Positions 10,318-47,243 of a stretch of 64,000 bases of DNA are shown here, one piece after another. Below the pieces are notes generated by a model. It saw only the letters and a program-made list of their open reading frames with translations, made no database searches and was not told the DNA's origin. The stretch comes from an uncultured Nitrososphaerota archaeon (GTDB taxonomy: Archaea; Thermoproteota; Nitrososphaeria; Nitrososphaerales; Nitrosopumilaceae): contig CAWGPD010000002.1 in the NCBI GenBank assembly GCA_963824385.1, positions 224,001-288,000 on the forward strand, written 5' to 3'. The translations under genes and the position numbers were made by a program. Position 1 is the first letter of the stretch, and each line of letters starts with the position of its first letter.

Positions 10318-10999
10318 TTGACAATACAGCCTATGAATAGAAATTCATCCATTGCACTATTCGGTGCAGTCTTTGTGGTCGCAGTAGGACTCATGGGCGC
10401 TAATGGAGTTTTCTCAATGTCATCGGGCATTATTGGCACATCTGGTACAAATTACCATGAAAATGCAGGAAACTTACTAGGCCATGTTACTCTAGTCGCA
10501 CAAGATCCAAGTGGAAACATTAAGGCATATCGACAAATGGACAACGTCGTAACACAGGTAGGAAGAACATGTACCGCAGCTTCTTTATTTGGAACAGTTC
10601 AATCATCAGGTTCTGATGCAGGCTGTTGGCCAAGAGGTACACAAGCTTCAGGTGAATTCCAGTACATCGGTATAGGATCATTGTCAAGAGCTGAAGTTAC
10701 ATCTGATACTAGTCTTGATTCCTATATACCAGGTTCTCCACCACAAGCACGAACATCATATATCTTGACCAACTCATCAAGCTCTACTAATGCAGGTGGA
10801 ACGTATGGTGCTACAGCAGTACAATCGACAAGCTTCATTTTCGGTGCACTCACAAACTGTTGGCGAAGCAGACTTGCAGGATGCCGCAGCAACTGTACAA
10901 GCATCAGAACATGCGTTTGCCAGAAAAGCAATTACCCCAACAATTGGTGTAAACAGCGGTGATACCTTAACTGTCACTTGGACAATATATACTGGATAA
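10318..10999 (+). CDS. Exported small beta-rich protein, paralogue 1 (phage-fibre-subunit-like); apparent +1 frameshift near 10849
   Basis: Hydrophobic N-terminus; GHVTLVAQDPSGNIKAYRQMDNVVT and YIGIGS...DTSL. After correction, QTVGEADLQD...HAFARKAITPTIGVNSGDTLTVTWTIYTG (ORF 10790..10999), collinear with the intact paralogue at 13454. Start may be the ATG at 10333. Confidence 0.8.
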
Positions 11000-13453: not shown

Positions 13454-14077
13454 ATGACAGAAAAGAATCAAATGTTGATATCTATGAAAAATATTTTAAT
13501 TGTAATGCTTGTAACTGCTTCAATCTCTGCTGGTGGAGTATTTTCATTTTTAACAAGTGAGAGTTTACCATCTGCAATGCATGACGAAAGCACAAAGGTA
13601 CTAGGACATGTAGAGTACAAAGTGTTCGGTCCTGATGGCAATATCAAAGAATATCTTCAAGCTGATAACTTGGTAGTAACCAACGGTGATAACTCGACAG
13701 TAAACAAGATGTTTAGTGTTTCAAGAACAACTACAAGTGTAACGATAAACCCCTTTATTGCAATTGCAGTAGGGACTGGAAGCACTGGTCCTTTTACAAC
13801 TGATACTGCACTTGGTACTCAACAAGGACACAAAACTATTGCAACCACTTCTATTACTACGGCAACTCACGGGCAGGTCACATTGACAGGCGTATTTAAT
13901 CCAGGAAAAATTACCAACTCTACAACTCAGACAATAACCGAGTCGGGTGTCTTTGATAATACTGCTACAACTCTGAATAGTAACTCTACTAACATGTATG
14001 CAAGACAGACCTTTAGTGGAATTACTATAGCATCTTCAGATACGCTTCAGGTTACTTGGAACATAACCATAACTTAG
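13454..14077 (+). CDS. Exported small beta-rich protein, paralogue 2 (phage-fibre-subunit-like)
   Basis: Hydrophobic N-terminus; GHVEYKVFGPDGNIKEYLQADNLVVTNG, IAVGTGST-DTALG, ITESGVF and MYARQTFSGITIASSDTLQVTWNITI. Confidence 0.85.
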   Translation: MTEKNQMLISMKNILIVMLVTASISAGGVFSFLTSESLPSAMHDESTKVLGHVEYKVFGPDGNIKEYLQADNLVVTNGDNSTVNKMFSVSRTTTSVTINPFIAIAVGTGSTGPFTTDTALGTQQGHKTIATTSITTATHGQVTLTGVFNPGKITNSTTQTITESGVFDNTATTLNSNSTNMYARQTFSGITIASSDTLQVTWNITIT

Positions 14078-17721: not shown

Positions 17722-18187
17722 TACGTTTAAACAATAACTATCACCTCTTTTACGAGATTTAGATATGAAAATGACTTTCTGCATGTATTAAGCAAAATCA
17801 AATTTCAAATGTTGACCAAGACACCATTTTCAGTTAAAGATGAGTGCCTTTATCAGATATGGCTATTTTTTTTTAAGGGAAAATGATTGACAAACCATCT
17901 CTTACTCTATATTCTTAAAATCAGTTGATAAAATCCTCTTCTCATGCTAGAAATTAAAAAATCCACCTAAAAATCATATGAATATATGTAATCCTGATAA
18001 TCTAAAAGTCAATCACATGATTACAAGTATCCTTTGAAATCTATCTCTAGGTTTTGTCCCATTTTGTTAAATTTGTGATTAAACTAAAGTTTTATGACAT
18101 TAGTTATCCAGACAAGCAAATTAAGAATTATCGATTTTAGCCTTTGAGGAAATTAAACATTGTAATAATTTGTTTACTACTTTAATG

Positions 18188-18559
18188 TCATAATGCTTTC
18201 ATTTTCTCCTCAACAATCTGCCTATATTTTGGAAAGTTCGTTATCATATACTCTGATTCCGATGTTTCAATAAATATAGAATCTTCAATTGCAATGAATA
18301 GATGAGCAATATCTTTTGGAATATGTATTATTGCAGGTGCCTTGAATGTTTGAACTGTTTCTTGATCGATAGAAATGTCATTGAATCTGACTTCTACTTG
18401 ACCAGAAATTAATGTATGATCTTGATCATATTTGTGATAATGACCTCCACGAGCAAACCCCTTCCTAGTCTCTATAAGGTTGATTTTCATATTGTTATAT
18501 GAATAGAAGATGATCTTACCCCTTACATCATCAATTTCCTTTTCAAATTTTAAATTCAC
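18188..18559 (-). CDS. Cupin-fold protein, sugar isomerase/epimerase-like
   Basis: D-RG, RGGHYH and IP---AH cupin motifs. Confidence 0.75.
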   Translation of the reverse strand: MNLKFEKEIDDVRGKIIFYSYNNMKINLIETRKGFARGGHYHKYDQDHTLISGQVEVRFNDISIDQETVQTFKAPAIIHIPKDIAHLFIAIEDSIFIETSESEYMITNFPKYRQIVEEKMKAL

Positions 18560-18836
18560 AAAATTAATAATTAACTAATTACTATTTCAAGACTTCCAAA
18601 TTTTTTATTATAGTCATCTGACATGTACAGTAATTAGAATCAAAATTCTTTTTATGTTAATATCCAAGATAAACATTACATTTACACATAAAAAAAAGAA
18701 ATATATCCAAAACTAAAGTTGTTTATTATTGTACCATGAATTAGTCAAGTATCTGTGCAATTAAAATAATGTTCTAAATTAAATTGACTTTGATGTTTTA
18801 GATAATCTTTAAGATCAAGATAAAAATATTACATGT

Positions 18837-19295
18837 ATGAAAAATTTTCAATATGCACCAAAACAAATCTATGATCAATTTGGAAAATATTTTCCATTTT
18901 CAACTGTAGATGTAATAATATTCCAACAAGACTCTATTCTTTTGATAAAACGAAAAATAATTCCTTACAAGGGAAAGTGGCATTTTCCTGGAGGACTGAT
19001 ACGAAAAAATGAAAAAATAAAAGATGCTGCAAAACGTGTTGTTAAAGTAGAATTGAATTTAGATATAAAACTTGAAAATTTTTTAGGAGTTTATGAAAAT
19101 CCTATTAGAACTCGTCATGATATAACACATTGTTTTATTGCGACTATGAAAAATAAAATTAACAATGATTATGAAACCAAATCAATAAAATTCTTTCAAA
19201 AAATTCCAAACAACACAATTCCATATCATAAATTAATAATTAAAGATGCATTTGAATATATGAAAATAGCAAAGAAAATTTCTTATCGTCGGTAA
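18837..19295 (+). CDS. NUDIX hydrolase (possibly GDP-mannose mannosyl hydrolase-like)
   Basis: PFSTVD and W-FPGG-IRKNE----AAKRVVKVEL, a variant Nudix box. Confidence 0.8.
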   Translation: MKNFQYAPKQIYDQFGKYFPFSTVDVIIFQQDSILLIKRKIIPYKGKWHFPGGLIRKNEKIKDAAKRVVKVELNLDIKLENFLGVYENPIRTRHDITHCFIATMKNKINNDYETKSIKFFQKIPNNTIPYHKLIIKDAFEYMKIAKKISYRR

Positions 19296-19536
19296 GTATT
19301 ATATTTTAATTATAATTTAAATTAATTAAAAAATATTATTCATTTGTTTTTTATAATTACATAATTATTTACTTGCTAAAAAAAATATTTTATAATTTGT
19401 TACAATTCAATTTTATTTTTTAAAATGATCAAAATTTTAAAAATTAATTTAGAAAAAATATTTTTCTAAAAATTATTCATTTGACATAATTTAGAAATTT
19501 TTTAACTAAAATTAAAAAAATAGATTTTATTTGATA

Positions 19537-19549
19537 GTCCAAAAAGGAC
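19537..19549. promoter_or_regulatory. Perfect palindrome GTCC-AAAAA-GGAC upstream of the giant gene
   Basis: Stands out at the end of an extremely AT-rich intergenic stretch; same TCC-N5-GGA core as the other sites. Confidence 0.45.
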
Positions 19550-19748
19550 ACCTAAAATGGTCTTGTTGCCAGAACGGTTAATCTATCCATTCGATAATTC
19601 CTCTCCTCTTTAATCCAATGTTGGATAATTTTACAATGTTGGAAATTATGCAATATTTCCCAGATTCTCTAGAATTGATCCTAGACTATTCTGTAATTCA
19701 TTTTAAAATTTCTGATCTAAAAAAAATTAATTTTTGGAGTTTTGAAAA

Positions 19749-22700
19749 ATGAAAATTGGTATTTTAATTTCTTGTTTGTTATTGATATCTGTTTTTAGCT
19801 ATGCATATGCTGATTCAATTATAATAGATGCTGATGTCAAACAAGCTGATACAAGACAAAACTTAACTCCATCATTACAAAATTCTTTGCCAACCAATAC
19901 AAAAAAATATTTTTCAATAAATCTAAATGAAAATATTGGAATTTCTGCAAATGATCAAAAACCATCTTCTCCAAATTCTAAATCTATGATGGTTGGATCC
20001 ATAAAAAGAATTTCTCTTTCTGAATATATTTCAATAACTACAGCTGGACTAGATCATAATTCGATTGCAATTTTTAAAAATAATAATATGGATAAAATTA
20101 CAACACTTGAACAACTTTCTTATCCTGAAAGAATAAGACTTAATGGAAAAAATGTTTTAGTTGATAATTATAATGTAAATCTTTTACTTGATCAATTTCC
20201 AATTGTCAAGGTTACAAATAATCTTCTAACTAATCTTTACTATGAAAAAATTACTTATTGCTGTATCGAGGAAAAAATTCAAATTGTAAATGATATTGCA
20301 TTTGTTGATAATTTCTTACTTGAAAATAACATTCCACAATTTTACCAATTAGATAATATTGCAAGTACTGACTTTGCTGACGTTGTACATGATTTGTCTG
20401 CCAGTACTAATCCTACAATTCTTCTCTTGTTGGTACTCCTTTCGAGTTATTTGTTATACTCTTACGAGGACGTAAAAATAAAGTATAACAAAAATAGAAT
20501 TTTTTCATTTTGTTTTATTTTGATTCTTGCTTTATCTTCAATCTTTACTCCGTTTTCGATATCTCAAAGTTATTGGGGTTATGCATATGGTGAGGTTGAA
20601 AGCAATTCGTCTAGTGCAATATACTCTACTACCCCACAAAATTCATTATCTCTTACGAACCCGGCTAGTAATTCAACCATATATCATACTACACAAGTAT
20701 CGCAGAATGATACATCTCAGACAGGTAATCTCACATACTATCATTGGAACTTGTTCCATTCTAAGAACCAGACAAGCTTACCATACCATATATCACTAAA
20801 TGCTACACCCAATGCAGGCAATTCTACATCCCCTCATTGGAACTCGTCGCATTCTAGGAGCCAGACAAGCTTACCATATCATACATCGCAGAATGTTCCA
20901 TCTCAAACAAGCAGCCCCACACCCTTACAACTCCCTAATGGAGTAAATACCCAGCCAACACCTGCACTCAATGGTGTTGGTATGAGTGATGTACTCACAA
21001 TAAAAGTCACTAGGGCAAATCCAACTGGTACCTCTATTTCCAGTCTACCTATCAATACAAATAACCCACAAAATGCTACTTCCTCTTTCTCAAACCTACC
21101 CATGTCTGATTCAGTCTTGGCAATGCTTCGTACACTATCTGGCTCTGTAACTAGCGTCTATGTCTCAAACCAAGTATCATTGGCTGATTCAGTCTCATTT
21201 GTAACTACCAACTCAAATGGCTCCAAAATAGTGCCAGTTTTCTTAAACCAGGTAACCATATCTGACTCTGTTATAGTTACCAAGCCAGGAGTAACCGTAC
21301 CAAATTCTACTCAATCTTGGCAATTCAACTCCATTAACAGTACTAACCACGTAGGCAACGTAGCCATCATAAACGGCACCAATGGAAATTTGCTACAACT
21401 CCAAGGAAATGGCTATCTTACTGATAAATCAAATCAGACAAAAACACTCGAAAACTTTACAATATCAGCCTGGGTCAAGCCAGATTATAGCCAAGGATCT
21501 CCTGTTTTTACTGTTGTAAGCAAGTACAACGAGTTTGCCCTTACTATTAACAACAACATAAACCCAAGAGGAGTTGCCTCATTTGGTGTCTATGACGGTA
21601 TTAAGTGGACAACGGTAAACTCTACGGTCCAATTAAACCAGACCTGGAATCACCTTGTTAGTACCTATAATGGCTCTGCAATTAGCATCTATGTCAACGG
21701 TACACTACAATCAACAACACCAATCAAAAGTACTCTAGTCTTGGCTGCTGACGGTGATCTTGTTCCCAAGACTCCAGACCAAATATCCTCAAACAATGAT
21801 GTAGTCATTGGGGCATTACTAGACACGGCACGAGGCTTTGGCCAGCCTATGAACAGCTTCTCTGGTCTTATCCAAAAGGTATCATTCTATGAGCCATACC
21901 TAAATCAGCAGCAAGTAGCTCAATTATATATCCAGGAACTGCCTACTTTTGTACCTCCGTCTTCTGCTTCCTATATCACTCCAGTATCTGATGGAATTGA
22001 TATTTTAGATGCAATTGCTACTTGGCTTGACTCTTCAAATCTTAACACTACATCTCTTGCTGCTGTACCTTCAGTTAACAACACACAACAGACTTATCTT
22101 ATTACACAAAATCCAGAATTTATCTACCAGTATCTATCTGATGCCCAACTTTTGACAATTACACCTGCAATAAAACCATCTCACAAGCAGCCACAAACAG
22201 GAGGCTGGGCTGATTCAGAGAAGTCAATTACTATTGATATAACAGGTCCGGATGGAAAGAAGAAGACATTCTCACCAACTATTTCAGAGATAAGACAAGG
22301 AAAATACGACATTAAAGTTCCATCATTAAGAGACGTAAGGGCTGGTATTTACAGTGTAAAAATAACCATGGTAAGAAATGGCCAGAAATTTGTAACTAAT
22401 GACCAATACCAGTGGGGTCTAGTCTCAGTTAACACAGACATGAGTACATACAAACCAGGAGACGTTGCAAAACTAATCCTTGTTGTACTAAACAGCACTG
22501 GAAATTCTGTTTGCAATTCTAATATCTTGATGACAATCACCGATCCTCAATCCAAAAAGACTACACTTGCAACTGGACTTGGAATTACACCAAGCAATGA
22601 GTGTGGTCTGTATGACGCAAATTACACAACCACCACACAAGGTAATTATTCCGTAAACGTCTCTGCACAGACTCAGACAGGATATGCGTTCTTTTCAACC

Positions 22701-25700
22701 TCATTTTTAGCACAAAATTATACACAATATCAAATAACAAGACAGGCAGATTCAAAGATAGACCCAGTTGACTATCCAAATAACTTCAAGGTAACACTTG
22801 ATGTGCAATCCTTTGTTGGCAATGCACCCGTTGTTATCAGAGAGTATGTACCTGCAAACTTTACCGTAACTACAGATGGACAGGTAAACCAAACTGGAGA
22901 CACCAAAGTTATCACCTGGCTGAAAAACTTGGGTCCTGGAAACAGCACCAATGTATCGTACAATTATTCCGTACCCAAGATTTATCCAAAACTGTATGCG
23001 CTAGGCAAGGCACAGATAGGCCAGAGCAACATGACATATGTCGAGGCAAGAAACTGGTTTGTCGCAGTTGATCCTCTAACCACTCAAGTAGATACTACGA
23101 CTGCAGCCAACACCAATGCACTAGCCGAAGAAAAATCAACCAAGCAGAATGTCTGTATATCGGCCACCGTGTGTTATTCTGCCTACATTACCTCATCTAG
23201 TAATGCTGTAATGGCAAAATCAACCGATGGTGGTAATACTTGGGGTGCACCAGTAGCACTCAGCTCAGGTCTTACGGTTGTTGGACTGGGAATATGGTAT
23301 GACAGATGGACACCAGGAGACAAGACAGGCAATAACATCCATGTCTTATTCTTGGACAGTGGCAACGACAGGACAAACTATGTACGATACAGCACAAATA
23401 ATGATTCTGCTTCAACCTCAGTTCAGACAGTTACCTTCGCAATGGGTTCACAAACTGATAACAATGATCTTGGAATAACTAAAGGTGCTGACGGAACACT
23501 CTATGCCGTAACAGATGATACTACTGGATTGACTGGTGGTCACTCGTTTATGCACTATTGTAAATCAGACTGTACTGTTGCTTCAAACTGGAAGGAGACT
23601 CCACAATTATTTGCTTCCGGAAATAAGGTTGGTACCTTGGGAGAAAATGATAACCTCCTACTTCCTCTAAACGATACAGATTCTTCTGTAATGATAGTTG
23701 CCCAAAATGTTACAACATCAACCTTCAAGGGAGCTATATACTATAACATCTTTGATCCAGTCACAAACACAACAAAATACTCTGACTTTCAAGTAATTAC
23801 TGGAGGAACTACACACGGATGGAAGACCAACGCCAATTACAGGCATACATTATCTGGAGCAGTAGACCCACTGTACCACACAATCTACATTAGTTATGTG
23901 AACAATACCGATGTAGCAGGTGTCAGTACAGCAATTGGAGTATGGAAGTATGTTCCATCATCATCTCCATCTTGGACTCAGCTTACAAAAATACCTGCTA
24001 CCAACTCTTCATCGTTTATACTTGATTCATCAATTGGAATTGCCAACTCGACAGGGTTGTATGTGGCATATTCTGAAGCAAAGACTGTAGGCACTGATAA
24101 TATCTATTATGCAGTATCTGTAGATGGAGGCAACACCTGGACCCAAGACCAGCAGATAAATGATATTGCAGCAGGTGACTTTAGGAGTGTCTCTATTGAA
24201 GCATCATCTGATACATCTTTACATGTTTTGTGGCAATCTAGGACTACTGGTCCTACAACTATTCACCTGTATACGGATACTGTAACACAGGTTGCATTCC
24301 AGAGGGAATCTATGGCAATTGTTGACCAGCCAGTAGTTATTGTCAGAAGAAGATCATCAAGCCAATCTGATTCAATGCCGTTATCAGATGCGCTAACAAT
24401 AGGTGGAAAACGTTCAGCCATGGTATCTAATGCAATTCCATTATCAGATGTACTGAGTACAGCTGGTGTACATCACCTTACACTAAACGAGGCTTCATCG
24501 ATATCTGATACAAGTTCCCGTCAAAGATTCAAGATAGCCACTGAAATAGATTCAATCCCATTGTCTGATCAACTAACCATACAAAAGAAATTATCAAGAT
24601 CACTCTCTGACGCAATTCCACTATCTGATTCATTAACCATAGCCAGAAAAACTTCTAAATCATTATCAGATTCAATCCCATTATCTGACCAGCTAACATA
24701 CAAGAGAGTCAGCTTCACTCTCCCTATCTGACGCTATCCCATTATCAGATCAACTAACTATACAGAAGAAATTATCACGAACATACTCTGACGCAATCCC
24801 ACTAGCAGACCAATTAACATACAAGAAATCAACCTCTACTTCACTAGCAGATTCAATCCCATTATCTGACCAGCTAACATACAAGAGAGTAGCTTCACTC
24901 TCCCTATCTGACGCTATCCCATTATCAGATCAACTAACTATACAGAAGAAATTATCACGAACATACTCTGACGCAATCCCACTAGCAGACCAATTAACAT
25001 ACAAGAAATCAACCTCTACTTCACTAGCAGATTCAATCCCATTATCTGACCAGCTAACATACAAGAGAGTCAGCTTCACTCTCCCTATCTGACGCTATCC
25101 CATTATCAGATCAACTAACTATACAGAAGAAATTATCACGAACATACTCTGACGCAATCCCACTAGCAGACCAATTAACATACAAGAAATCAACCTCTAC
25201 TTCACTAGCAGATTCAATCCCATTATCTGACCAGCTAACATACAAGAGAATCAGCTTCACTCTCCCTATCTGACGCTATCCCATTATCAGATCAACTAAC
25301 TATACAAAAGAAATTATCACGAACATACTCTGACGCAATCCCACTAGCAGACCAATTAACATACAAGAAATCAACCTCTACTTCACTAGCAGATTCAATC
25401 CCATTATCTGACCAGCTAACATACAAGAGAGTCACTTCACTCTCCCTATCTGACGCTATCCCATTATCAGATCAACTAACTATACAAAAGAAATTATCAC
25501 GAACATACTCTGACGCAATCCCACTAGCAGACCAATTAACATACAAGAAATCAACCTCTACTTCACTAGCAGATTCAATCCCATTATCTGACCAGCTAAC
25601 ATACAAGAGAGTAGCTTCACTCTCCCTATCTGACGCTATCCCATTATCAGATCAACTAACTATACAAAAGAAATTATCACGAACATACTCTGACGCAATC

Positions 25701-28700
25701 CCACTAGCAGACCAATTAACATACAAGAAATCAACCTCTACTTCACTAGCAGATTCAATCCCATTATCTGACCAGCTAACATACAAGAGAGTCAGCTTCA
25801 CTCTCCCTATCTGACGCTATCCCATTATCAGATCAACTAACTATACAAAAGAAATTATCACGAACATACTCTGACGCAATCCCACTAGCAGACCAATTAA
25901 CATACAAGAAATCAACCTCTACTTCACTAGCAGATTCAATCCCATTATCTGACCAGCTAACATACAAGAGAGTAGCTTCACTCTCCCTATCTGACGCTAT
26001 CCCATTATCAGATCAACTAACTATACAAAAGAAATTATCACGAACATACTCTGACGCAATCCCACTAGCAGACCAATTAACATACAAGAAATCAACCTCT
26101 ACTTCACTAGCAGATTCAATCCCATTATCTGACCAGCTAACATACAAGAGAGTAGCTTCACTCTCCCTATCTGACGCTATCCCATTATCAGATCAACTAA
26201 CTATACAAAAGAAATTATCACGAACATACTCTGACGCAATCCCACTAGCAGACCAATTAACATACAAGAAATCAACCTCTACTTCACTAGCAGATTCAAT
26301 CCCATTATCTGACCAGCTAACATACAAGAGAACAACCACTGCCAATCTATCAGATGCAATCCCATTATCTGATCAACTAACTATACAGAAGAAATTATCA
26401 AGATCATACTCTGACGCAATCCCACTAGCAGACCAATTAACATACAAGAGAACAACCTCAACATCATTATCAGATTCAATCCCATTATCTGACCAGCTAA
26501 CATACAAGAGAACAACCACTGCCAATCTATCAGATGCAATCCCATTATCTGATCAACTAACTATACAAAAGAAATTATCAAGATCATACTCTGACGCAAT
26601 CCCACTAGCAGACCAATTAACATACAAGAAATCAACCTCAACATCATTATCAGATACAATCCCATTATCTGACCAGCTAACATACAAGAGAACAACCACT
26701 GCCAATCTATCAGATACAATCCCATTATCTGATCAACTAACTATACAAAAGAAATTATCACGAACATACTCTGACGCAATCCCACTAGCAGACCAATTAA
26801 CATACAAGAAATCAACCTCTACTTCACTAGCAGATTCAATCCCATTATCTGACCAGCTAACATACAAGAGAGTAGCTCACTCTCCCTATCTGACGCTATC
26901 CCATTATCAGATCAACTAACTATACAAAAGAAATTATCACGAACATACTCTGACGCAATCCCACTAGCAGACCAATTAACATACAAGAAATCAACCTCTA
27001 CTTCACTAGCAGATTCAATCCCATTATCTGACCAACTAACATACAAGAGAACAACCACTGCCAATCTATCAGATGCAATCCCATTATCTGATCAACTAAC
27101 TATACAAAAGAAATTATCAAAATCATACTCTGACGCAATCCCACTAGCAGACCAATTAACATACAAGAGAACAACCTCAACATCATTATCAGATTCAATC
27201 CCATTATCTGACCAACTAACATACAAGAGAACAACCACTGCCAATCTATCAGATGCAATCCCATTATCTGATCAACTAACTATACAAAAGAAATTATCAA
27301 GATCATACTCTGACGCAATCCCACTAGCAGACCAATTAACATACAAGAAATCAACCTCAACATCATTATCAGATACAATCCCATTATCTGACCAGCTAAC
27401 ATACAAGAGAACAACCACTGCCAATCTATCAGATACAATCCCATTATCTGATCAACTAACTATAATCAAGTCACTATCAAGAACACTATCAGATTCACTT
27501 CCATTATCTGACCAACTAACAACAATGAAATCAACCTCAACATCATTATCAGATACAATCCCATTATCTGACTCACTAACTGCAAAGAGAATTGCCTATG
27601 CAAATCTCTCTGATTCTATTCCACTATCAGATTCATTAACAGCTATCAAATTAAATAAATCTCCATCTCTCGCCGACGCAATCCCATTATCTGACTCACT
27701 AACTGCAAAGAGGATTGCCTATGCCAATCTATCAGATACAATCCCATTATCAGACCAACTAACATACAAGAAATCAGCTACTCTATCCCTATCTGATACA
27801 ATCCCACTATCCGACCAATTAACATTCATCAAGTCAGTCTCAAAATCCCTCTCAGATACAATTCCATTATCTGACCAACTAACAACAATGAAATCAACCT
27901 CAACATCATTATCAGATACAATCCCATTATCTGACCAGCTAACATACAAGAGAACAACCTCAACATCATTATCAGATACAATCCCACTATCCGACCAATT
28001 AACATTCATCAAGTCAGTCTCAAAATCCCTCTCAGATACAATCCCATTATCTGACCAACTAACAACAATGAAATCAACCTCAAAATCCCTCTCAGATACA
28101 ATCCAATTATCAGACCAACTAACATACAAGAAATCAACATCCACATCACTTGCTGATACTATTCCATTATCTGATCAACTAACATTCATCAAGTCAGTCT
28201 CAAAATCCCTCTCAGATACAATCCCATTATCTGACCAACTAACAACAATGAAATCAACCTCAACATCATTATCAGATACAATCCAATTATCAGACCAACT
28301 AACATACAAGAAATCAGCTACTCTATCCCTATCTGATACAATCCCACTATCCGACCAATTAACATTCATCAAGTCAGTCTCAAAATCCCTCTCAGATACA
28401 ATCCCATTATCTGACCAACTAACAACAATGAAATCAACTTCAACATCATTATCAGATACAATCCAATTATCAGACCAACTAACATACAAGAAATCAGCTA
28501 TCTCTATCCCTATCTGATACAATCCCACTATCCGACCAATTAACATTCATCAAGTCAGTCTCAAAATCCCTCTCAGATACAATTCCATTATCTGACCAAC
28601 TAACAACAATGAAATCAACCTCAAAATCCCTCTCAGATACAATCCCATTATCTGACCAACTAACATACAAGAAATCAACCTCAACATCATTATCAGATAC

Positions 28701-31700
28701 AATCCCACTATCCGACCAATTAACATTCATCAAGTCAGTCTCAAAATCCCTCTCAGATACAATTCCATTATCTGACCAACTAACAACAATGAAATCAACC
28801 TCAAAATCCCTCTCAGATACAATCCCATTATCTGACCAACTAACATACAAGAAATCAACCTCAACATCATTATCAGATACAATCCCACTATCCGACCAAT
28901 TAACATTCATCAAGTCAGTCTCAAAATCCCTCTCAGATACAATCCCATTATCTGACCAACTAACAACAATGAAATCAACCTCAACATCATTATCAGATAC
29001 AATCCAATTATCAGACCAACTAACATACAAGAAATCAACATCCACATCACTTGCTGATACTATTCCATTATCTGATCAACTAACATTCATCAAGTCAGTC
29101 TCAAAATCCCTCTCAGATACAATCCCATTATCTGACCAACTAACAACAATGAAATCAACTTCAACATCATTATCAGATACAATCCAATTATCAGACCAAC
29201 TAACATACAAGAAATCAACATCCACATCACTTGCTGATACTATTCCATTATCTGATCAACTAACATTCATCAAGTCAGTCTCAAAATCCCTCTCAGATAC
29301 AATCCCATTATCTGACCAACTAACAACAATGAAATCAACCTCAACATCATTATCAGATACAATCCCATTATCAGACCAACTAACATACAAGAAATCAGCT
29401 ACTCTATCCCTATCAGATACAATCCCACTATCCGACCAATTAACATTCATCAAGTCAGTCTCAAAATCCCTCTCAGATACAATTCCATTATCTGACCAAC
29501 TAACAACAATGAAATCAACCTCAACATCATTATCAGATACAATCCCATTATCTGACCAACTAACATACAAGAAATCAACCTCAACATCATTATCAGATAC
29601 AATCCCACTATCCGACCAATTAACATTCATCAAGTCAGTCTCAAAATCCCTCTCAGATACAATTCCATTATCTGACCAACTAACAACAATGAAATCAACC
29701 TCAAAATCCCTCTCAGATACAATCCCATTATCTGACCAACTAACATACAAGAAATCAACCTCAACATCATTATCAGATACAATCCCACTATCCGACCAAT
29801 TAACATTCATCAAGTCAGTCTCAAAATCCCTCTCAGATACAATCCCATTATCTGACCAACTAACAACAATGAAATCAACCTCAACATCATTATCAGATAC
29901 AATCCAATTATCTGACCAACTAACAACAATGAAATCAACCTCAACATCATTATCAGATACAATCCCACTATCCGACCAACTAACAATCATCAAATTCACA
30001 TCACCGTATCTATCAGATTCCATTCCATTATCCGACCAACTAACAATCATCAAATTCACTACTGCCAATCTCTCCGACTCTATCTCATTATCCGACCAAC
30101 TCACTGCGAAGAAGTCAACCTCAACATCACTTGCAGACTCAATCCCACTAACAGACCAACTAACATACAAGAAATCAACCTCAACATCATTATCAGATAC
30201 AATCCCACTATCCGACCAACTAACAATCATCAAATTCACATCACCGTATCTATCAGATTCCATTCCATTATCTGACCAGCTAACAATCATTAAATTCACT
30301 ACTGCCAATCTCTCCGACTCTATCCCATTATCAGACCAACTAACAACAATGAAATCAACCTCAACATCATTATCAGATACAATCCCACTATCCGACCAAC
30401 TAACAATCATCAAATTCACATCACCGTATCTATCAGATTCCATTCCACTATCCGACCAACTAACAATCATCAAATTCACTACTGCCAATCTCTCCGACTC
30501 TATCTCATTATCAGACCAACTAACAACAATGAAATCAACCTCAACATCACTTGCAGACTCAATCCCACTAGCTGATCGACTAAGTGTACAGAGAACAGTC
30601 TACGCTAATCTCTCCGACGCAATCCCATTATCCGACCAACTAACAACTATCAAATCAGGTTCTACCTCTCTATCTGACTCCATCTCATTATCTGATCAAC
30701 TAACAATCATCAAACTCACTTCTGCTTCACTCTCCGACGTTATCCCATTATCTGACCAGCTAACAACAATGAAATCAACCTCAACATCATTATCTGATAC
30801 AATCCCATTATCAGATCAACTAACATACAAGAAATCAGCTACTCTATCCCTATCTGACTCCATCCCACTATCCGACCAACTAACAATCATAAAATTCACT
30901 TCTACCTCTCTATCTGATTCACTTCCATTATCAGACCAACTCACTGCAAAGAAGTCAACTTCTACCTCTCTCTCCGATTCAATCCCACTAGCAGATCAGC
31001 TAACTATACAAAGAATAGCCTACGCTAATCTCTCCGATTCACTCCAACTATCCGACAAACTAACCACAATAAAATCAGCCTCTGCTTCTCTCTCCGATAC
31101 AATCCCATTATCCGACCAATTAACCACTATCAAATCTCTTTCCACTTCACTCTCCGACTCTATTCCGTTATCTGATCAATTAACTGCAAAGAGAATAGCC
31201 TACGTCTCTCTATCAGATACAATCCCACTAGCAGACCAACTAACTGTACAAAAGTCATCTGTTGTCAATCTCTCCGACTCTATCACACTATCCGACTCTC
31301 TAACACTTCCCAACAAATTAATCTCAAAATATTTCTCTGACACAATTCCATTATCTGACCAACTAACAACAATGAAATCAGCTACTGCCAATCTCTCCGA
31401 CACAATCTCATTATCTGATTCACTAACTGCAAAGAGAATAGCATACGTCTCTCTCTCCGATTCACTCCCATTATCTGATCAACTAACAATCATCAAATCA
31501 CTCTCCAAGTCCCTCTCCGATTCAATCCAACTATCCGACCAACTAACAGCCTTCAGAACAACAGCTGCCGTCTCTCTATCTGATTCTATCCCACTAGCAG
31601 ACCAACTATATGTAAAGAGAATAGCCTACGCTAATCTCTCCGATTCACTCCCACTATCAGATCAACTAACAACACAGAGAACAGCCTCTGCTTCCCTATC

Positions 31701-34700
31701 TGACGCAATCCCATTATCCGACCAACTAACAACAATTAGAACAACAGCTGCCGTCTCCCTCTCCGACATAATTCCACTATCTGATAAATTAACAACAATG
31801 AAGTCAACTTCTACCTCTCTCCCCGACACAATTCCATTATCCGACCAGATAACCATACAAAGAACAGCCTCTGCTTCCCTATCTGATTCAATTCCATTAT
31901 CCGACCAGCTAACAACACAACTAACAACATCCACATCATTATCTGATTCAATTCCATTATCCGACCAGCTAACAACACAACTAACAACATCCACATCATT
32001 ATCTGATTCAATCCCATTATCCGACCAACTAACAACACAGAGAACAGCCTCTGCTTCCCTATCTGACGCAATCCCACTATCCGACCAGCTAACAATAACC
32101 AAATCTCTTAGCACTTCTCTCACTGATTCAATTCCATTATCCGACCAGCTAACCATACAACAATCTCTTAGCACTTCTCAATCTGATTCAATTCCATTAT
32201 CCGACCAGCTAACAACACAACTAACAACATCCACATCATTATCTGATTCAATCCCATTATCAGATCAACTAACAACACAGAGAACAGCCTCTGCTTCCCT
32301 ATCTGATTCAATTCCATTATCCGACCAGCTAACAACACAACTAACAACATCCACATCATTATCTGATTCAATTCCATTATCCGACCAACTAACAACACAA
32401 CTAACAACATCCACATCATTATCTGATTCAATCCCATTATCCGACCAACTAACAACACAGAGAACAGCCTCTGCTTCCCTATCTGACGCAATCCCACTAT
32501 CCGACCAGCTAACAATAACCAAATCTCTTAGCACTTCTCTCACTGATTCAATTCCATTATCCGACCAGCTAACCATACAACAATCTCTTAGCACTTCTCA
32601 ATCTGATTCAATTCCATTATCCGACCAGCTAACAACACAACTAACAACATCCACATCATTATCTGATTCAATCCCATTATCAGATCAACTAACAACACAG
32701 AGAACAGCCTCTGCTTCCCTATCTGATTCAATTCCATTATCCGACCAGCTAACAACACAACTAACAACATCCACATCATTATCTGATTCAATTCCATTAT
32801 CCGACCAGCTAACAACACAACTAACAACATCCACATCATTATCTGATTCAATCCCATTATCCGACCAACTAACAACACAGAGAACAGCCTCTGCTTCCCT
32901 ATCTGACGCAATCCCACTATCCGACCAGCTAACAATAACCAAATCTCTTAGCACTTCTCTCACTGATTCAATTCCATTATCCGACCAGCTAACCATACAA
33001 CAATCTCTTAGCACTTCTCAATCTGATTCAATTCCATTATCCGACCAGCTAACAACACAACTAACAACATCCACATCATTATCTGATTCAATCCCATTAT
33101 CAGATCAACTAACAACACAGAGAACAGCCTCTGCTTCCCTATCTGATTCAATTCCATTATCCGACCAGCTAACAACACAACTAACAACATCCACATCATT
33201 ATCTGATTCAATTCCATTATCCGACCAGCTAACAACACAACTAACAACATCCACATCATTATCTGATTCAATCCCATTATCCGACCAACTAACAACACAG
33301 AGAACAGCCTCTGCTTCCCTATCTGACGCAATCCCACTATCCGACCAACTAACAATAACCAAATCTCTTAGCACTTCTCTCACTGATTCAATTCCATTAT
33401 CCGACCAGCTAACCATACAACAATCTCTTAGCACTTCTCAATCTGATTCAATTCCATTATCCGACCAGCTAACAACACAACTAACAACATCCACATCATT
33501 ATCTGATTCAATCCCATTATCAGATCAACTAACAACACAGAGAACAGCCTCTGCTTCCCTATCTGATTCAATTCCATTATCCGACCAGCTAACAACACAA
33601 CTAACAACATCCACATCATTATCTGATTCAATTCCATTATCCGACCAGCTAACAACACAACTAACAACATCCACATCATTATCTGATTCAATCCCATTAT
33701 CCGACCAACTAACAACACAGAGAACAGCCTCTGCTTCCCTATCTGACGCAATCCCACTATCCGACCAGCTAACAATAACCAAATCTCTTAGCACTTCTCT
33801 CACTGATTCAATTCCATTATCCGACCAGCTAACCATACAACAATCTCTTAGCACTTCTCAATCTGATTCAATTCCATTATCCGACCAGCTAACAACACAA
33901 CTAACAACATCCACATCATTATCTGATTCAATCCCATTATCAGATCAACTAACAACACAGAGAACAGCCTCTGCTTCCCTATCTGATTCAATCCCATTAT
34001 CCGACCAGCTAACAACACAACTAACAACATCCACATCATTATCTGATTCAATTCCATTATCCGACCAGCTAACAACACAACTAACAACATCCACATCATT
34101 ATCTGATTCAATCCCATTATCCGACCAACTAACAACACAGAGAACAGCCTCTGCTTCCCTATCTGACGCAATCCCACTATCCGACCAGCTAACAATAACC
34201 AAATCTCTTAGCACTTCTCTCACTGATTCAATTCCATTATCCGACCAGCTAACCATACAACAATCTCTTAGCACTTCTCAATCTGATTCAATTCCATTAT
34301 CCGACCAGCTAACAACACAACTAACAACATCCACATCATTATCTGATTCAATCCCATTATCAGATCAACTAACAACACAGAGAACAGCCTCTGCTTCCCT
34401 ATCTGATTCAATTCCATTATCCGACCAGCTAACAACACAACTAACAACATCCACATCATTATCTGATTCAATTCCATTATCCGACCAGCTAACAACACAA
34501 CTAACAACATCCACATCATTATCTGATTCAATCCCATTATCCGACCAACTAACAACACAGAGAACAGCCTCTGCTTCCCTATCTGACGCAATCCCACTAT
34601 CCGACCAGCTAACAATAACCAAATCTCTTAGCACTTCTCTCACTGATTCAATTCCATTATCCGACCAGCTAACCATACAACAATCTCTTAGCACTTCTCA

Positions 34701-37700
34701 ATCTGATTCAATTCCATTATCCGACCAGCTAACAACACAACTAACAACATCCACATCATTATCTGATTCAATCCCATTATCAGATCAACTAACAACACAG
34801 AGAACAGCCTCTGCTTCCCTATCTGATTCAATTCCATTATCCGACCAGCTAACAACACAACTAACAACATCCACATCATTATCTGATTCAATTCCATTAT
34901 CCGACCAGCTAACAACACAACTAACAACATCCACATCATTATCTGATTCAATCCCATTATCCGACCAACTAACAACACAGAGAACAGCCTCTGCTTCCCT
35001 ATCTGACGCAATCCCACTATCCGACCAGCTAACAATAACCAAATCTCTTAGCACTTCTCTCACTGATTCAATTCCATTATCCGACCAGCTAACCATACAA
35101 CAATCTCTTAGCACTTCTCAATCTGATTCAATTCCATTATCCGACCAGCTAACAACACAACTAACAACATCCACATCATTATCTGATTCAATCCCATTAT
35201 CAGATCAACTAACAACACAGAGAACAGCCTCTGCTTCCCTATCTGATTCAATTCCATTATCCGACCAGCTAACAACACAACTAACAACATCCACATCATT
35301 ATCTGATTCAATCCCATTATCAGATCAACTAACAACACAGAGAACAGCCTCTGCTTCCCTATCTGATTCAATTCCATTATCCGACCAGCTAACAACACAG
35401 AGAACAGCCTCTGCTTCCCTATCTGACGCAATCCCACTATCCGACCAGCTAACAATAACCAAATCTCTTAGCACTTCTCTCACTGATTCAATTCCATTAT
35501 CCGACCAGCTAACCATACAACAATCTCTTAGCACTTCTCAATCTGATTCAATTCCATTATCCGACCAGCTAACAACACAACTAACAACATCCACATCATT
35601 ATCTGATTCAATCCCATTATCAGATCAACTAACAACACAGAGAACAGCCTCTGCTTCCCTATCTGATTCAATTCCATTATCCGACCAGCTAACAATAATG
35701 AAATCAACATCAAAATCCCTATCAGATACAATCCCACTATCTGACAAGCTAACTATAATCAAATCCACTTCTGCTTCCCTATCTGACGCAATCCCACTAT
35801 CTGACAAGCTAATCATCAAGAAATTAACATCCACATCATTATCCGATACAATCCCACTAGCAGACCAACTAACTGCAAAGAAATCCACCTCTATTCACAT
35901 ATCTGATATGATCCCACTAGCAGATCAACTAACAATAATGAAATCAACATCAAAATCCCTATCAGATACAATCCCACTATCTGACAAGCTAACCATCAAG
36001 AAATTAACATCCACATCATTATCCGATATAATCCCACTAGCAGACCAACTAACTGCAAAGAAATCCACCTCTATTCACATATCTGATATGATCCCACTAG
36101 CAGATCAACTAACAATAATGAAATCAACATCAAAATCCCTCTCAGATACAATCCCACTATCTGACAAGCTAACCATCAAGAAATTAACATCCACATCATT
36201 ATCCGATATAATCCCACTAGCAGACCAACTAACTGCAAAGAAATCCACCTCTATTCACATATCTGATATGATCCCACTAGCAGATCAACTAACAATAATG
36301 AAATCAACATCAAAATCCCTATCAGATACAATCCCACTATCTGACAAGCTAACCATCAAGAAATTAACATCCACATCATTATCCGATATAATCCCACTAG
36401 CAGACCAGCTAACAATAATGAAATCAGCCTCTGCTAAACTCTCCGATGCAATACCACTATCTGCTCAACTAACTATAATCAAATCCGCATCAAAATCCCT
36501 CTCAGATACAATCCCACTATCTGACAAGCTAACCATCAAGAAATTAACATCCACATCATTATCCGATATAATCCCACTAGCAGACCAACTAACTGCAAAG
36601 AAATCCACCTCTATTCACATATCTGATATGATCCCACTAGCAGACCAGCTAACAATACAGCAATCCCTTACCAGATCTCTATCTGATACAATCCCACTAG
36701 CTGACAAGCTAACAATAACCAAATCCACCTCTGCCTCACTTGTAGACTCCATCGCACTATCAGACCAGCTATCAGCAACAACTCAAAAACAAACTACATT
36801 ATCAGATTCATTTGCAATGACTGATGCAATCTCTTATAGATTATACAAGGTAGCTTACTTGACTGATGCAATTCCATTAGCATCACCAGCATTATCATTT
36901 GGTGGAGGATTGATAATTGAAGCAAGAGATCTGAACAATGTACCAATTCCAGGTGCAATATACACAATATATCCAAACCCAAGTGGTACATCCACTCCTC
37001 TTGTTATAGCTGATGGACAGTACGTCTCACCAAACGGAGATTATGATAGTTACTCAGGTACTAACAATAATGGAAATGTGATAGTAACAAAGGTACCATT
37101 TGGCTCATACCAGATAAACATGACAACAATACCCTCTGGATATGATGTTCTTGGCAACTCGACAGTATACACACTTCATGGAACCAACTTTAATGGAACT
37201 ACAATATTCAGAATGGTTCCAGTTGGTACAGTATTATCTAACATGACACATACAACAATCACTAGTGCTCCTGACCTAAATGCCACAACATGGAATACAT
37301 GGGTTTACTCATTTAATGCCAAAGTGATTAACGGCAGTACTACTACAAAGGTACAGTCAGTATCTACACTACCAGATATCCAATCAGCTGGAATAAACAA
37401 TACATCTTCTATTAACAAGGCAATACAGAACCAAGCATCAGTTGTTCTATCAACATCTGATACATCGTCTATGACTGGTACTTCTATAATCAACTACCTA
37501 AAGGTGCCACTCTATTCAGTTCCACAATCAAACAAGGTAGTATCAGTATTGCCAAGTATAATTTCAACAGGAAGACTCCACTCATATCAGGTAATATCTA
37601 CGCCACCACTTAATGCAACAATTCCAGGACAGAAAATAATTATCCCAGTACAGCAGAGTGCCATTCCATCAACTGGTGGTGTAAAAGAGATTGATGCCCA

Positions 37701-39698
37701 GTCCAACTCATCGTCACCTCAAGGCAATGCAACAAATGATTGGTTTGTAATCAAATCAGTTAACACACTTCCATCTACATTACCAGTACTTCCAAAGAGT
37801 GACAAGGACATACTATATGTCAATGTGGACTATCAACATGAAGAAAATGGTATTGGATTTGACTGGAGTAAACCACGAAACTTTGAAAAACCACCACAGA
37901 TTGACATTACAGTTACCAAAGAATGTACCTGGAGTAGTGTCAGATTCCAATGGATGTCCAGTATCTGATGTCTTCTTGTATGACCCATCCACAGGAAGCT
38001 GGACTACAAATGCAGTAACAATTATCTCTTCAGCATACAATGGAACTACCAATGCATGTGATGTTATAGTCCAAGCCCCACACTACTCACAATTTGCATT
38101 AGGTGCTCCTGCAGTAGCAGCCCCAGCCCCAGCCCCAGCACCAATTAGTGTAGGATATAGTGCAGGTGGAGCAGGAGCAGGAGGGCCATCTCCATCACCA
38201 GTAGTAAGTTCAGGAGGGGGAGCGAGGAGGGCCTTACTTTAAGATCGAAAAGATATCTTATGATGTATGTGACAAGCAAATTGTAACAATACAGGTTGGA
38301 ACAGGCAGCAACAAAACTGATCCATCTGTAATTGTCAGAACATCTATCAGCGGAGTAGTAGACGCACAGCTTCTACCAGTTCAACCATATGCACAACAAA
38401 ATGTTAACGCTACAGTTAGAGAACTAGTATACCAAGCTACTATCTCTCCAAATGAAAAAGAATTTGAAGTTGTTGCAATAGAGGAAGTTGATAACAATGT
38501 CTATTCAGTAGGAAAGACTGTTGAGGTTACTGGCTGTAGCGAGGAACTCAATCTGGTACAGATTCAAATCGCAGTACCTACTACTGTTATTGATCTTGCA
38601 GCACCAAGAATATTTGACTTTAAATTCCAAGTAGATAACGGAACAAAACAACTTGCAACAGAGCCAACAACGCAATTTGTAGATAATCAACCACTCACAG
38701 TATATGCTATAATAGATTCAAAGACACCAATTGCAACTGCTGATCTAAGATTTACTGATGTCACAAGTACTGATTCTAGTGTATATCACGCTACAACAAT
38801 GGATGTTACTCCACTACTAATATCCAACAGCACGTATATCGTATCAGCAACAATTCCATCAGACTTGTTAGATGCACCTGGAATGAAATATTGGATACAT
38901 GTTGAAAATAATGCCCACAAGGTAGCAGATTCCGATACTGCTACAATAGGAGTAAAACCAGATTATCCAATTGACGGCAAACTAGAGTTGGATGTCTCAC
39001 AAAATAGAGCAGCAGGAACAACAGCAAGACCTGCAGCCTACTTTACCAACAACGGACAGCCAGTGTATGGTACAATCTCACTTGTAGTAGATGGTAATAC
39101 TGTTTACACTTCTCCAGGACAAGTATTTGCCAAAGGACAGACTGCAGTAGGACTAGAATGGCAGACTCAACCAACAGATAGTCTTGTCAATCACAAGATT
39201 GAGGCAGTAGCCAACATATACGACAAGTCATTTACTGTTCAAGCCAACATCATTACCTTCTCATCAATAAAGACCCAATCCATAGCACAACCAATTACTA
39301 TATCTTCAATCAATGACAACAGCGGTAATGCAATTGCTACTCCACAGATTCTCTATTCTTCGTTTAACAATGATGGTAACATGAGATTCAAGGTATCTGC
39401 ACCTGATGGAACATGTGTGATAGGCCCATCTGATGACTGTCTTGTTAAGGACTCGACATTTGATTTGCCAGGACAAATAAAGAGTGTAGTTATAGGCGAC
39501 CAAGTTTTCAGAGTCAGATATTCTGGAACAAATGATCCGCTAGAAAGATTCTCTATCACATCAGTAGATCCTATAGTCGGAACATGGAATGTTGAGATTG
39601 ATTCTCAGGTAGACCTTACACCACAGACACAGGTAATGGAAACTGTCCCACTCAAGATAACCTTTAGACCAGTGGAAATACCATTTGAATCTGATTAG
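19749..39698 (+). CDS. Giant (~6,650 aa) repetitive surface protein: signal peptide plus 2 TM, LamG, MG2-like, Asp-box propeller, ~205-210 x 20-aa repeats, C-terminal domains; broken by 8 single-base indels
   Basis: ORFs 19749, 27525, 28609, 37799 and 38799 join with +1 at ~24710, ~25071, ~25251 and ~25792, -1 at ~26878, and +1 at ~28501, ~37900 and ~38224. The predicted frame matches every ORF start. LamG: FTISAWVKP, WNHLVSTYNG, IYVNG. Asp-box: STDGGNTW, SVDGGNTW. MG2-like: VNTDMSTYKPGD. Confidence 0.88.
24358..36880 (+). repeat. ~12.5-kb coding tandem array of 60-bp units with higher-order 180-bp and 420-bp periods
   Basis: The core tctga...atcccattatctgaccaactaac recurs every 60 bp and translates to (S/T)LSD(S/T/A)IPLSDQLTxx(K/R/Q)xx. 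Confidence 0.97.
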
Positions 39699-39728: not shown

Positions 39729-41186
39729 TCAGGGAAATGCAGTGGCTTGTGCAAGATGCGAATCTAATTCTGAAATCTTGATCCTTTCTTGACTCATTGA
39801 ATCACGATTTCGTATTGTAACTGTATTATCTTCCAATGTCTGATGATCAATTGTTACTGCGAAGGGGGCACCTATCTCATCAAGTCTTCTATATCTTCTT
39901 CCTATTGCACCAGAATGATCTAAAAATGCATCATACTTCTTTTTTAACATAAAATACACCTCATCTGTCTTTTCTGCCAAGCCATCTTTTTTTACAAGCG
40001 ATAATACACCAACATGAATTGGTGCAAGATAAGGCTCCAAAGAAAGAACAACTCTCTCATTTTCTTTATCTTCACGTAGTCTATGTTCTATCATAGTATA
40101 GAGACTTCGGTCTATACCCATTGATATCTCAAAGACATGTGGAAGAACCTTGATCTCATCATCAATTACCTCAAATTTTTCCTTGCTTGTATTGGCATGG
40201 CTCTTTAAATCATAATCTGATCTATAGTTACATGCAACAAGTTCCAACCAACCTGTATTGGTTTCTACTTCAAAATCAAAAGCAACTGTTGCATAGAATG
40301 CTTTTTCTTTTTCTCCTAGTTTTCTAAATCTACTTCTATTAACATCAATCCCAGTTTTTTGATAAAACTCCACTAGTAATCCAAGATAATATGCAACAAG
40401 CTTGTTTGGTATTACCCCAGAATCTACAGCTTCCTTACAAGTCATGCTTTTTATCGTATCATCTACCATTATTCTGATTATAGTATTTTCTACCTCTGAG
40501 AATTTTGATATATCGTCAAGCTTCTCTGGATTACAAAAGACCTCAATCTCTGCTTGGTAAAACTCTCTTAATCTAAGAAGACTCTGTCTTGGTGAGATCT
40601 CATTTCTAAAACTCTTTCCAATTTGGGCAACTCCTATTGGAAGCTTTCCTCTCATGGTCTTGAAAAGTCTTGGAAAATCAACAAAGATTGACTGACATGT
40701 TTCAGGTCTTAGGTATGCAGGTTCTCCCTGTGCTCCTATTCCAACCTTGAACATCATGTTGAATTTTTTAATATTTTCAAGACTTCCCTTACATTTGGGA
40801 CATGTAATCTTCTTCTCTTCTATTATTCTATCAAATTCTGTCAAGTCTGCATTTTCAGGAATTATTATTTTGGTAATCTCTTCTATCATTTTGTCTGCTC
40901 TAAAGATTGATTTGCATTTAGTACATGTTGCAATAGGATCTGCAAAGCTTGCAAGGTGACCAGAGGCTACAAAAACATTCTGTGACATAATCTGAGAACC
41001 ATCAATCTCCCACATTCTATCTCTTCTTACTAATTCCCTTCTCCATAGTTCTATGAATTTGTTCTTTAGGCTAACTCCAGACGGGCCGTATTCCCAAAAA
41101 CCTGCATGGGCATCTGAATAGATCTCACAACTAGGAAAATAGAATCCGCGTTCCAGCGCAAGTTGCATTATTTGTTCATAATTCAT
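39729..41186 (-). CDS. glyS: Glycine--tRNA ligase
   Basis: YLRPET, QIGKSFRNEISPRQ-LLRLREF-QAE, PHVFE-S-GIDR and IGRRYRR-DEIG. Confidence 0.95.
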   Translation of the reverse strand: MNYEQIMQLALERGFYFPSCEIYSDAHAGFWEYGPSGVSLKNKFIELWRRELVRRDRMWEIDGSQIMSQNVFVASGHLASFADPIATCTKCKSIFRADKMIEEITKIIIPENADLTEFDRIIEEKKITCPKCKGSLENIKKFNMMFKVGIGAQGEPAYLRPETCQSIFVDFPRLFKTMRGKLPIGVAQIGKSFRNEISPRQSLLRLREFYQAEIEVFCNPEKLDDISKFSEVENTIIRIMVDDTIKSMTCKEAVDSGVIPNKLVAYYLGLLVEFYQKTGIDVNRSRFRKLGEKEKAFYATVAFDFEVETNTGWLELVACNYRSDYDLKSHANTSKEKFEVIDDEIKVLPHVFEISMGIDRSLYTMIEHRLREDKENERVVLSLEPYLAPIHVGVLSLVKKDGLAEKTDEVYFMLKKKYDAFLDHSGAIGRRYRRLDEIGAPFAVTIDHQTLEDNTVTIRNRDSMSQERIKISELDSHLAQATAFP

Positions 41187-41207
41187 AAAAATCCAAACTC
41201 TTCCAAA

Positions 41208-42052: not shown

Positions 42053-42178
42053 GTGACTAATTTATTTGAGGATAATTTAAACTCGTATGGAATAATTTGG
42101 AAAATTCCTAGTCATGACAAAACACTAGTCAATTGGCAAGATAATCAAATTTTTAAACATAGTAAGAACAAAGAAAAT

Positions 42179-47242: not shown

Positions 47243-47243
47243 C

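Follow-up and report, generated by a model that had tools for sequence, protein, structure and literature searches.

The window analysed here is a 64,000-nucleotide (nt) stretch of DNA from an uncultured Nitrososphaerota archaeon of the Nitrosopumilaceae (assembly GCA_963824385.1, contig CAWGPD010000002.1, positions 224,001 to 288,000 of the forward strand), and positions are counted from its first letter. Between 19749 and 39698, a sequence-only reading had joined five open reading frames (ORFs) and two unannotated gaps into a single gene of about 20 kb. The ORF list of the window contained the ORF starts (19749, 27525, 28609, 37799, and 38799) and both gaps as described. The gap at 24731-27525 was filled by a 60-nt repeat along which the reading frame shifts, and one open frame across 38208-39698, which opens with VQEGERGGPYFKIEKISYDVCDK, continued into the ORF at 38799, so that both gaps are coding, as had been claimed. 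Parsing of the array gave six non-triplet repeat units, of 61 or 59 nt instead of 60, starting at 24675 (+1), 25036 (+1), 25217 (+1), 25758 (+1), 26839 (-1), and 28461 (+1); a parsed pair of 49 and 14 nt was set aside as an anchor artefact (the lengths sum to 63). Over all eight breaks the shifts summed to seven +1 and one -1 (net +6), and the joined frame, with X at the breaks, measured 19,944 nt and 6,647 amino acids (aa) (~712 kDa) with a single, terminal stop. Recomputation thus returned the values proposed earlier and added two frame-neutral double errors, one in the repeat unit at 25398 and one at 37575/37580. The gene and its breaks are as follows.

19749..39698, + strand: giant surface-protein gene of ~6,647 aa, in nine reading-frame pieces in the assembly (frame joining; collinear single-ORF relatives)
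24700..28510, + strand: six single-base breaks within the repeat, near 24708, 25069, 25250, 25791, 26877, and 28502, each at most 2 nt from AGCT
37901, + strand: break 7, an extra base missing in short-read contigs of 4/4 runs
38223, + strand: break 8, an extra base missing in short-read contigs of 4/4 runs

Full-length orthologues, which the sequence-only reading had suggested looking for, were present as single ORFs at the same place in G005 (2,766 aa), G014 (2,724 aa, with a masked stretch), and G007 (2,402 aa), in each case tail to tail with the glycyl-tRNA synthetase gene. Giant-gene ORFs of 3,441 and 3,219 aa were found in other genera, and intact relatives carried the same domains in single ORFs of 2,400 to 3,400 aa. 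The G005 ORF was collinear with the first piece in the window (47% over residues 397-1558), the tail of piece 7 (49% over residues 1774-2164), and the last piece (70% over residues 2277-2766), and relative P0002 crossed breaks 7 and 8 in one frame (86-92%). The last piece was matched in 23 of the 24 genomes of the genus, some matches being weak and through paralogues. In many relatives a contig edge falls inside the repeat, and the giant genes of G015 (>80 repeat units) and G041 (pieces totalling ~5,800 aa) are also split in the assembly. The joined frame and the collinear relatives support the single-gene claim, and the stretch is very probably one intact gene in the cell. The earlier frame repair is correct; what it repaired is, in itself, an assembly artefact of an ordinary kind, for which a likely cause can be named. 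The description of the product as an exceptionally large archaeal protein is fair as to size, but falls short of a record: lengths of 8,553 and ~9,000 aa are given for archaeal proteins in the available text of one source (PMC6642349), and archaeal genes of >10,000 aa exist, though few, according to the part available of another (10.1101/2023.11.21.568195).

The joined protein has the following features.

19749..19811, + strand: predicted signal peptide (hydrophobic residues 1-19)
20415..20564, + strand: two hydrophobic segments, predicted N-terminal membrane anchor (residues 249-267 pass the hydropathy cut-off, ~223-240 recognised by eye; both in relatives)
21405..21920, + strand: LamG/concanavalin A-like domain (PF13385, E = 1.6e-15, over the cut-off)
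22428..22679, + strand: MG2-like immunoglobulin (Ig) domain (PF01835, E = 2.4e-5, under the cut-off)
23085..24302, + strand: likely BNR/Asp-box beta-propeller (Atlas feature matches of 0.90-0.91 to BNR/sialidase clusters, a lead only)
24300..36861 (residues 1518-5703), + strand: ~209 tandem 20-aa units, the proposed rope (core L-x-D-x-I-x-L-x-D; phrog_12240, E = 7e-27)
36880..39698, + strand: conserved C-terminal module of ~920 aa, a predicted string of beta-sandwiches with a Gly/Ala/Pro linker (SpaA-like match; G017 model)
38081..38089, + strand: His-Tyr-Ser, a possible self-cleavage site before the linker (sequence motif)

At the DNA level the array consists of ~200 copies of the 60-nt unit from ~24550 to 36715. 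A motif scan of the protein returned 207 units, spaced by 20 residues in 200 cases and by 21 in 5, with one gap of 60, and the repeat was 37% serine plus threonine. Its Pfam matches (GED, Vps23, and others) were rejected as composition artefacts, as no stretch passes. The propeller slot is variable, being shared with G005 and replaced in G014 and G007. The C-terminal module was modelled in the intact G017 relative (predicted local distance difference test [pLDDT], 87.9); a whole-module fold search gave only diffuse matches to multi-Ig chains, and profiles of the repeat and of the module had no meaningful sequence match in the PDB. The motif H-[FYL]-[ST] was kept in 47 of 49 relatives and is followed by a strand in the model, an arrangement that we take to resemble the H-x-[ST] self-cleavage motif before the last strand of GAIN/ZU5-type domains. 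No C-terminal hydrophobic segment that could serve as an anchor was present in the joined translation. Several Nitrosotalea genomes (L029-L033) carry two to four paralogues of the giant gene that differ in their middle modules.

Upstream of the giant gene lie two genes for small proteins.

13454..14077, + strand: small predicted secreted beta-protein of 207 aa, the proposed bead (phrog_5417, E = 2.9e-14; model pLDDT 82)
10318..10999, + strand: second, divergent paralogue of the small protein (matches phrog_5417; frameshifted near 10850 in the assembly)

The pairing of such a gene with the repeat recurs in viruses and in other archaea. Of 319 viral loci that have the small gene, the best 80 were examined, and 58 of these (26 of 32 clusters) held a chain of at least three repeat units no more than 6 kb away, while none of 62 viral loci drawn by an arbitrary pattern held such a chain; after shuffling, at most 1 of 81 viral loci passed the repeat motif. 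Phages Simon and BcepGomr have, right behind the tape measure gene, a gene with such repeats at its end, and the small gene follows it directly. No match came from scanning viral contigs with a single protein or from querying annotated phages with the repeat. In other archaeal families, for which 7 of 20 such genomes were fetched, 6 of 7 loci had the small gene directly next to a long ORF with repeats. Three repeat proteins, each at least 2,000 to 2,900 aa long and from further families of the order (L233:10719-18128, L235:9285-17999, and L236:9498-15434), are encoded directly behind a small gene with a signal-like N-terminus, and two of the three have no match to the C-terminal module of the present family. 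Within the family, 12 genomes of other genera had the small gene and the giant C-terminus in the same nine and neither in the same three. The small gene is also found immediately upstream of a giant-gene paralogue in L029 and L032. A hydrophobic N-terminus (score of at least 2.0) was present in both small proteins of the window and in each of the six archaeal members next to a rope, and in none of the 44 from viral loci, of which five were cut at the match start and three were read from an internal Met. The small protein of N. devaniterrae is annotated "conserved exported protein of unknown function," and the small-protein profile reached 15,788 clusters (50% identity) at an E value of 0.001 or better. 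A literature search, thin on subscription journals, returned nothing on this protein family or on an archaeal rope-type fibre, and the available text of the A1002 phage paper contains no word beginning "archae" (PMC13730344). The gene family is already in databases as hypothetical LamG proteins; the new element is its pairing, through the repeat, with the small protein, which was not found in the literature searched.

In structure comparisons, the model of the small protein had the baseplate hub of HFTV1 as its top match (Z = 11.5), and Foldseek also ranked the hub first; the fibre chain 8jou_a of phage GP4 (Z = 8.1; 117 of 136 residues aligned; root-mean-square deviation, 3.5) and the phi812 baseplate (Z = 7.5) matched as well. 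The top three PDB sequence matches of the wider profile were the HFTV1 hub (E = 8.5e-9), a 171-aa chain of 26la/44nx (E = 0.0016), and 8jou_a (E = 0.53). From their lengths, the 171-aa chain was assigned to gp41 of phage A1002 and 8jou_a to gp80 of GP4; the available text of the A1002 paper gives 171 aa for gp41 in 44NX and 140 aa for gp80 in 8JOU (PMC13730344). With moderate confidence, and on the strength of the model, the small protein appears to share the fold of the subunits of phage chain-like fibres and of the baseplate hub. Residues 400-609 of the hub (9h4p_BD) contain the small-protein domain twice in tandem, like a fused dimer. The A1002 fibre has 11 dimers, each in an augmented beta-sheet with a rope whose region covers ~226-270 residues and ~300 Å, and GP4 has 5 dimers on a separate rope, as described in the text available (PMC13730344). 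For A1002 this corresponds to ~20-24 residues per dimer, near the repeat period of the giant protein.

By analogy with the chain-like fibres of GP4 and A1002, the giant protein and the small proteins may form a rope-and-bead fibre on the cell surface, a proposal that we regard as evenly poised. The giant protein would be exported and held in the membrane by its N-terminus, and its ~209 repeats would act as the rope, with each 20-residue unit binding one dimer of the secreted small protein by beta-strand addition. The two paralogous small proteins could cover the rope together, as gp40 and gp41 do in A1002. Such a fibre might be ~0.55 micrometre long (at the 27 Å per dimer of the A1002 rope) and up to 1.4 micrometre, and would hold out the C-terminal beta-sandwich module at a distance from the cell, where it could serve adhesion. 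The housekeeping neighbours of the gene and the glycyl-tRNA synthetase synteny in relatives contradict a phage-virion context, so that the structure may work like a chain-like fibre yet be no phage tail fibre. The broader claim, that ammonia-oxidising archaea have domesticated a phage chain-like tail fibre as a membrane-anchored rope whose repeat number sets its length and which carries hundreds of secreted subunit dimers, is offered tentatively, our confidence falling just short of even.

Several observations weigh against the fibre. The small gene lies 5.7 kb upstream of the giant gene with other genes between. The nine genomes in which both occur have them linked within 10 kb in four cases, far apart in one, and with unresolved linkage in four, and the giant gene of G077 has a small gene beside it and no detected repeat chain. 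In the viral survey, the looser repeat motif was composed after examples had been seen, reversed sequences also passed it (55 of 81), and a profile built from archaeal repeats alone found 1 of 81 loci. The HFTV1 hub, the best structural match, uses the fold without a described rope. Neither the solved ropes nor the rope of KPP25, which belongs to the genus of A1002 and has the same protein lengths, matched the repeat profile, and the small-protein profile matched the gp41 sequence weakly (11% probability). The best four-unit stretch of KPP25 (residues 396-470) has period 20 and lies where the rope would be expected, but its score was likewise weak, being reached by 82, 3, and 8 of 300 shuffles with three profiles. 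Complex prediction of a small-protein monomer with three repeat units, run without controls and with an uncertain partner fold, scored 0.00 twice, an outcome that favours neither side.

The alternative that survives best accepts one gene with assembly errors and takes the repeat as a bare, glycosylated, Ser/Thr-rich stalk of the serine-rich adhesin or mucin type, the small protein acting otherwise, for instance as a cap or anchor. The 37% serine plus threonine of the repeat fits it, as do a weak match of a relative to a serine-rich family (35 of 650 bits, far below the cut-off), the failure of the repeat profile to match solved ropes, and the arrangement in G077. On the other hand, the repeat has fixed hydrophobic and acidic positions and a strict period of 18-22, which are common to the archaeal and to non-Ser-rich viral copies; the gene pairing is tight in viruses and archaea; and the small protein has the fold common to rope-binding subunits. 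We consider a bare stalk possible, though short of likely.

The remaining alternatives concern the breaks and the array rather than the fibre. Each of the six breaks in the repeat is at most 2 nt from an AGCT, a tetramer that makes up 6% of the array, although these sites are not independent of one another. Of the 10 copies of one repeat unit, 4 were intact, and the other 6 carried four different alterations at one and the same AGCT. The tendency extended to the rest of the genome, an assembly of 5 contigs and 1.68 Mb. In a survey of 450 orthologues (125,803 aa) against 776 kb of the 1.97 Mb of G014, we found 89 frameshift junctions, or ~1 per 4.3 kb, a rate at which 4-5 breaks are expected in a gene this long. 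AGCT was present at 61 of 86 localised frameshifts (null mean, 6.0; maximum of 200 draws, 14), and none of nine other 4-mers exceeded its own null maximum. GATC was not enriched at frameshifts by a loose test (14 versus 7.8; null maximum, 16). In about 12 frameshifts without AGCT the sequence is GAATC or GATTC, which would fit GATC as a second modified site prone to error. In the available text on a Nitrosoarchaeum bin, 96% of AGCT sites carry N4-methylcytosine (m4C) (PMC6329791), and the part available of a preprint links nanopore errors to methylation motifs, though these errors are substitutions (10.64898/2026.01.14.699587). By analogy, AGCT is predicted to be methylated in this organism. 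The genome encodes a 283-aa SPPY-type methyltransferase amid housekeeping genes (G000:C4:402049-402750; L034:1429-2280), which, from its sequence, is a candidate for the AGCT enzyme. The eight breaks are likely long-read or assembly errors, and most of them fall at AGCT sites for which methylation is predicted.

Short reads bear on the same question. The runs compared were those with a high word share; the ten best were labelled soil metagenome or metagenome, and an RNA run with a share of 0.06 stood outside the comparison, which takes in no array sequence from ~31800 to 36700. The extra bases at breaks 7 and 8 were missing from the short-read contigs of all four runs (three studies), and the same runs also lacked the extra bases that split the endonuclease IV and primase large-subunit genes. 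Over 11.9-24.7 kb the short-read contigs were near-identical to the window, and over this region plus 30578 AGCT was restored by four of five shared substitution events and by the single indel. The read check across eight sites, which had been proposed with the one-gene claim, thus came out in favour of error at breaks 7 and 8 and left the repeat breaks unbridged by the contigs shown. The short-read population was near-identical at 11900-24700 and ~1% divergent in blocks at 37500-38300 and 41000-56700, a left/right pattern for which strain recombination and mixed-strain assembly are alternatives.

Against AGCT-linked error as the cause stand several findings. No short-read contig shown bridges the six repeat breaks, and an exact pattern spanning the first had no match in metagenome contigs. 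Near breaks 7 and 8, 13 substitutions (~1% divergence) set the runs apart from the window and mark them as another strain. Deleting the extra bases there yields no AGCT, AGCT was restored in only 5 of 11 read-corrected indel events examined, and another AGCT context in the array is free of indels in 63 copies. The long-read platform is itself inferred and off record.

A gene with real breaks, that is, a decaying pseudogene or a strain-level inactivation in which one insertion was spread among repeats by conversion, would account for the same inserted C in several repeat copies, for the strain difference of the runs at breaks 7 and 8, and for the split giant genes of G015 and G041 in their own assemblies. 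We find this very unlikely, given 6,647 codons without an in-frame stop and the occurrence of the same kind of break in conserved genes genome-wide, including that of the primase large subunit, at ~1 per 4.3 kb. A little less likely again is a single gene whose array was inflated by assembly, the true protein being nearer the 2,400 to 3,400 aa of its relatives. Intact relatives are less than half as long, and no short-read contig spans the array; against this, sub-blocks of the array differ in sequence, G015 has >80 units, and the pieces of G041 sum to ~5,800 aa. The depth of a 420-nt unit relative to single copy was 101 versus 13.7, 180 versus ~21, and 26 versus ~3, and this ~7- to 9-fold excess is consistent with its 9 assembled copies. 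Programmed frameshifting or phase variation that adjusts stalk length would suit breaks clustered at one repeat register, near the repeat start, yet is scarcely credible, as it requires eight events in succession, 6 of 8 breaks lie outside homopolymer runs and slippery heptamers, and the same signature occurs genome-wide. We retain a single intact gene broken by errors in the assembly as the most probable reading.

The gene neighbours in the window are archaeal housekeeping genes, and the source records of close relatives of the last piece give Nitrosotalea sp. or Thaumarchaeota as the name. Other genes of the window are also split by single-base breaks: an aconitase X-like gene (67-895), with a break near 372 at an altered AGCT, and genes for a pentapeptide/HYR protein (14187-17721; break at 16243), endonuclease IV (41208-42052), and primase large subunit (42053-43190), whose breaks are missing from short-read contigs. 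The gene at 14187-17721, between the small and giant genes, encodes a secreted protein of ~1,170 aa of the pentapeptide-repeat and HYR type, with GNNNQGNNGW repeats at its end, and G005 and G014 have long ORFs at the matching position. Overlapping gene pairs at 2351-4281 and 60957-61977, presumably NEMF/Rqc2-like and CbiG-like to judge from their translations, probably reflect the same artefact.

The likely cause of the breaks and a possible role for the repeat are additions to the earlier reading. Roughly one conserved gene in five is broken by AGCT-linked indels when these archaea are assembled from long reads, and short-read assemblies break at repeat arrays, so that a giant gene found across the family is mostly on record as fragments. 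Should the repeat prove to be a rope, then nitrifiers of a widespread group would be building a surface fibre out of components also found in phage tails, its length written in the gene; two unannotated families (phrog_5417-like subunits and phrog_12240-like repeats) would gain a testable function, and attachment to soil particles or partners would gain a candidate structure. The D-x5-D repeat would then be a marker by which ropes could be recognised in thousands of viral and cellular genes that lack annotation. Surface appendages of archaea include archaella, type IV pili, hami, cannulae, and threads; a domesticated fibre, if real, would be a kind apart from all of these, with ~200 sites in the present case.

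Among the closest known proteins are the "LamG-like jellyroll fold domain-containing" entries of Nitrosotalea, Nitrosotenuis, Nitrosarchaeum, and Nitrosopumilus, which belong to the same family (LamG, MG2-like domain, repeats, and C-terminal module). The entries seen are at most ~3,400 aa or partial, and the window allele has several times more repeat units. The serine-rich repeat proteins SraP, GspB, and Fap1 also project a binding region on a long Ser/Thr-rich stalk. They differ in that their LPxTG anchor and accessory secretion genes were not seen nearby here, where the predicted anchor is N-terminal, and in that the present repeat has a 20-aa period with a hydrophobic/acidic core and is not made of Ser-rich dipeptides. 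Two giant archaeal surface proteins, SPEARE with up to 8,553 aa and halomucin with ~9,000 aa, are similar in size class, LamG/adhesion-type domains, and membrane anchor, as far as the available text describes them (PMC6642349); no shared repeat or enzyme domains were seen. The bead-chain neck fibre of cyanophage A-1(L) was rejected as a fibre of this kind, since it consists of trimers without a rope in the text available (PMC10966104). Baseplate hub gp44 of HFTV1 (9H4P), the best match of the small protein in both structure and sequence, differs in that the domain lies within a 954-aa virion protein, for which the part available of its description mentions no rope (PMC12494034). The rope-and-dimer type of chain-like fibre is represented by podophages GP4 (gp80, 8JOU), A1002 (gp39/gp40/gp41, 44NX), and VP1. 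Unlike in GP4 and A1002, the genes here have cellular housekeeping neighbours (glycyl-tRNA synthetase and cobalamin genes) and encode signal-like N-termini, the proposed sites number ~209 versus 5-11, the rope motif of KPP25/A1002 is not detectably alike, and binding is proposed from the likeness itself. Like them, the locus combines a small beta-protein of the same predicted fold, encoded near a long protein with a low-complexity segment, with a spacing of ~20 residues per site.

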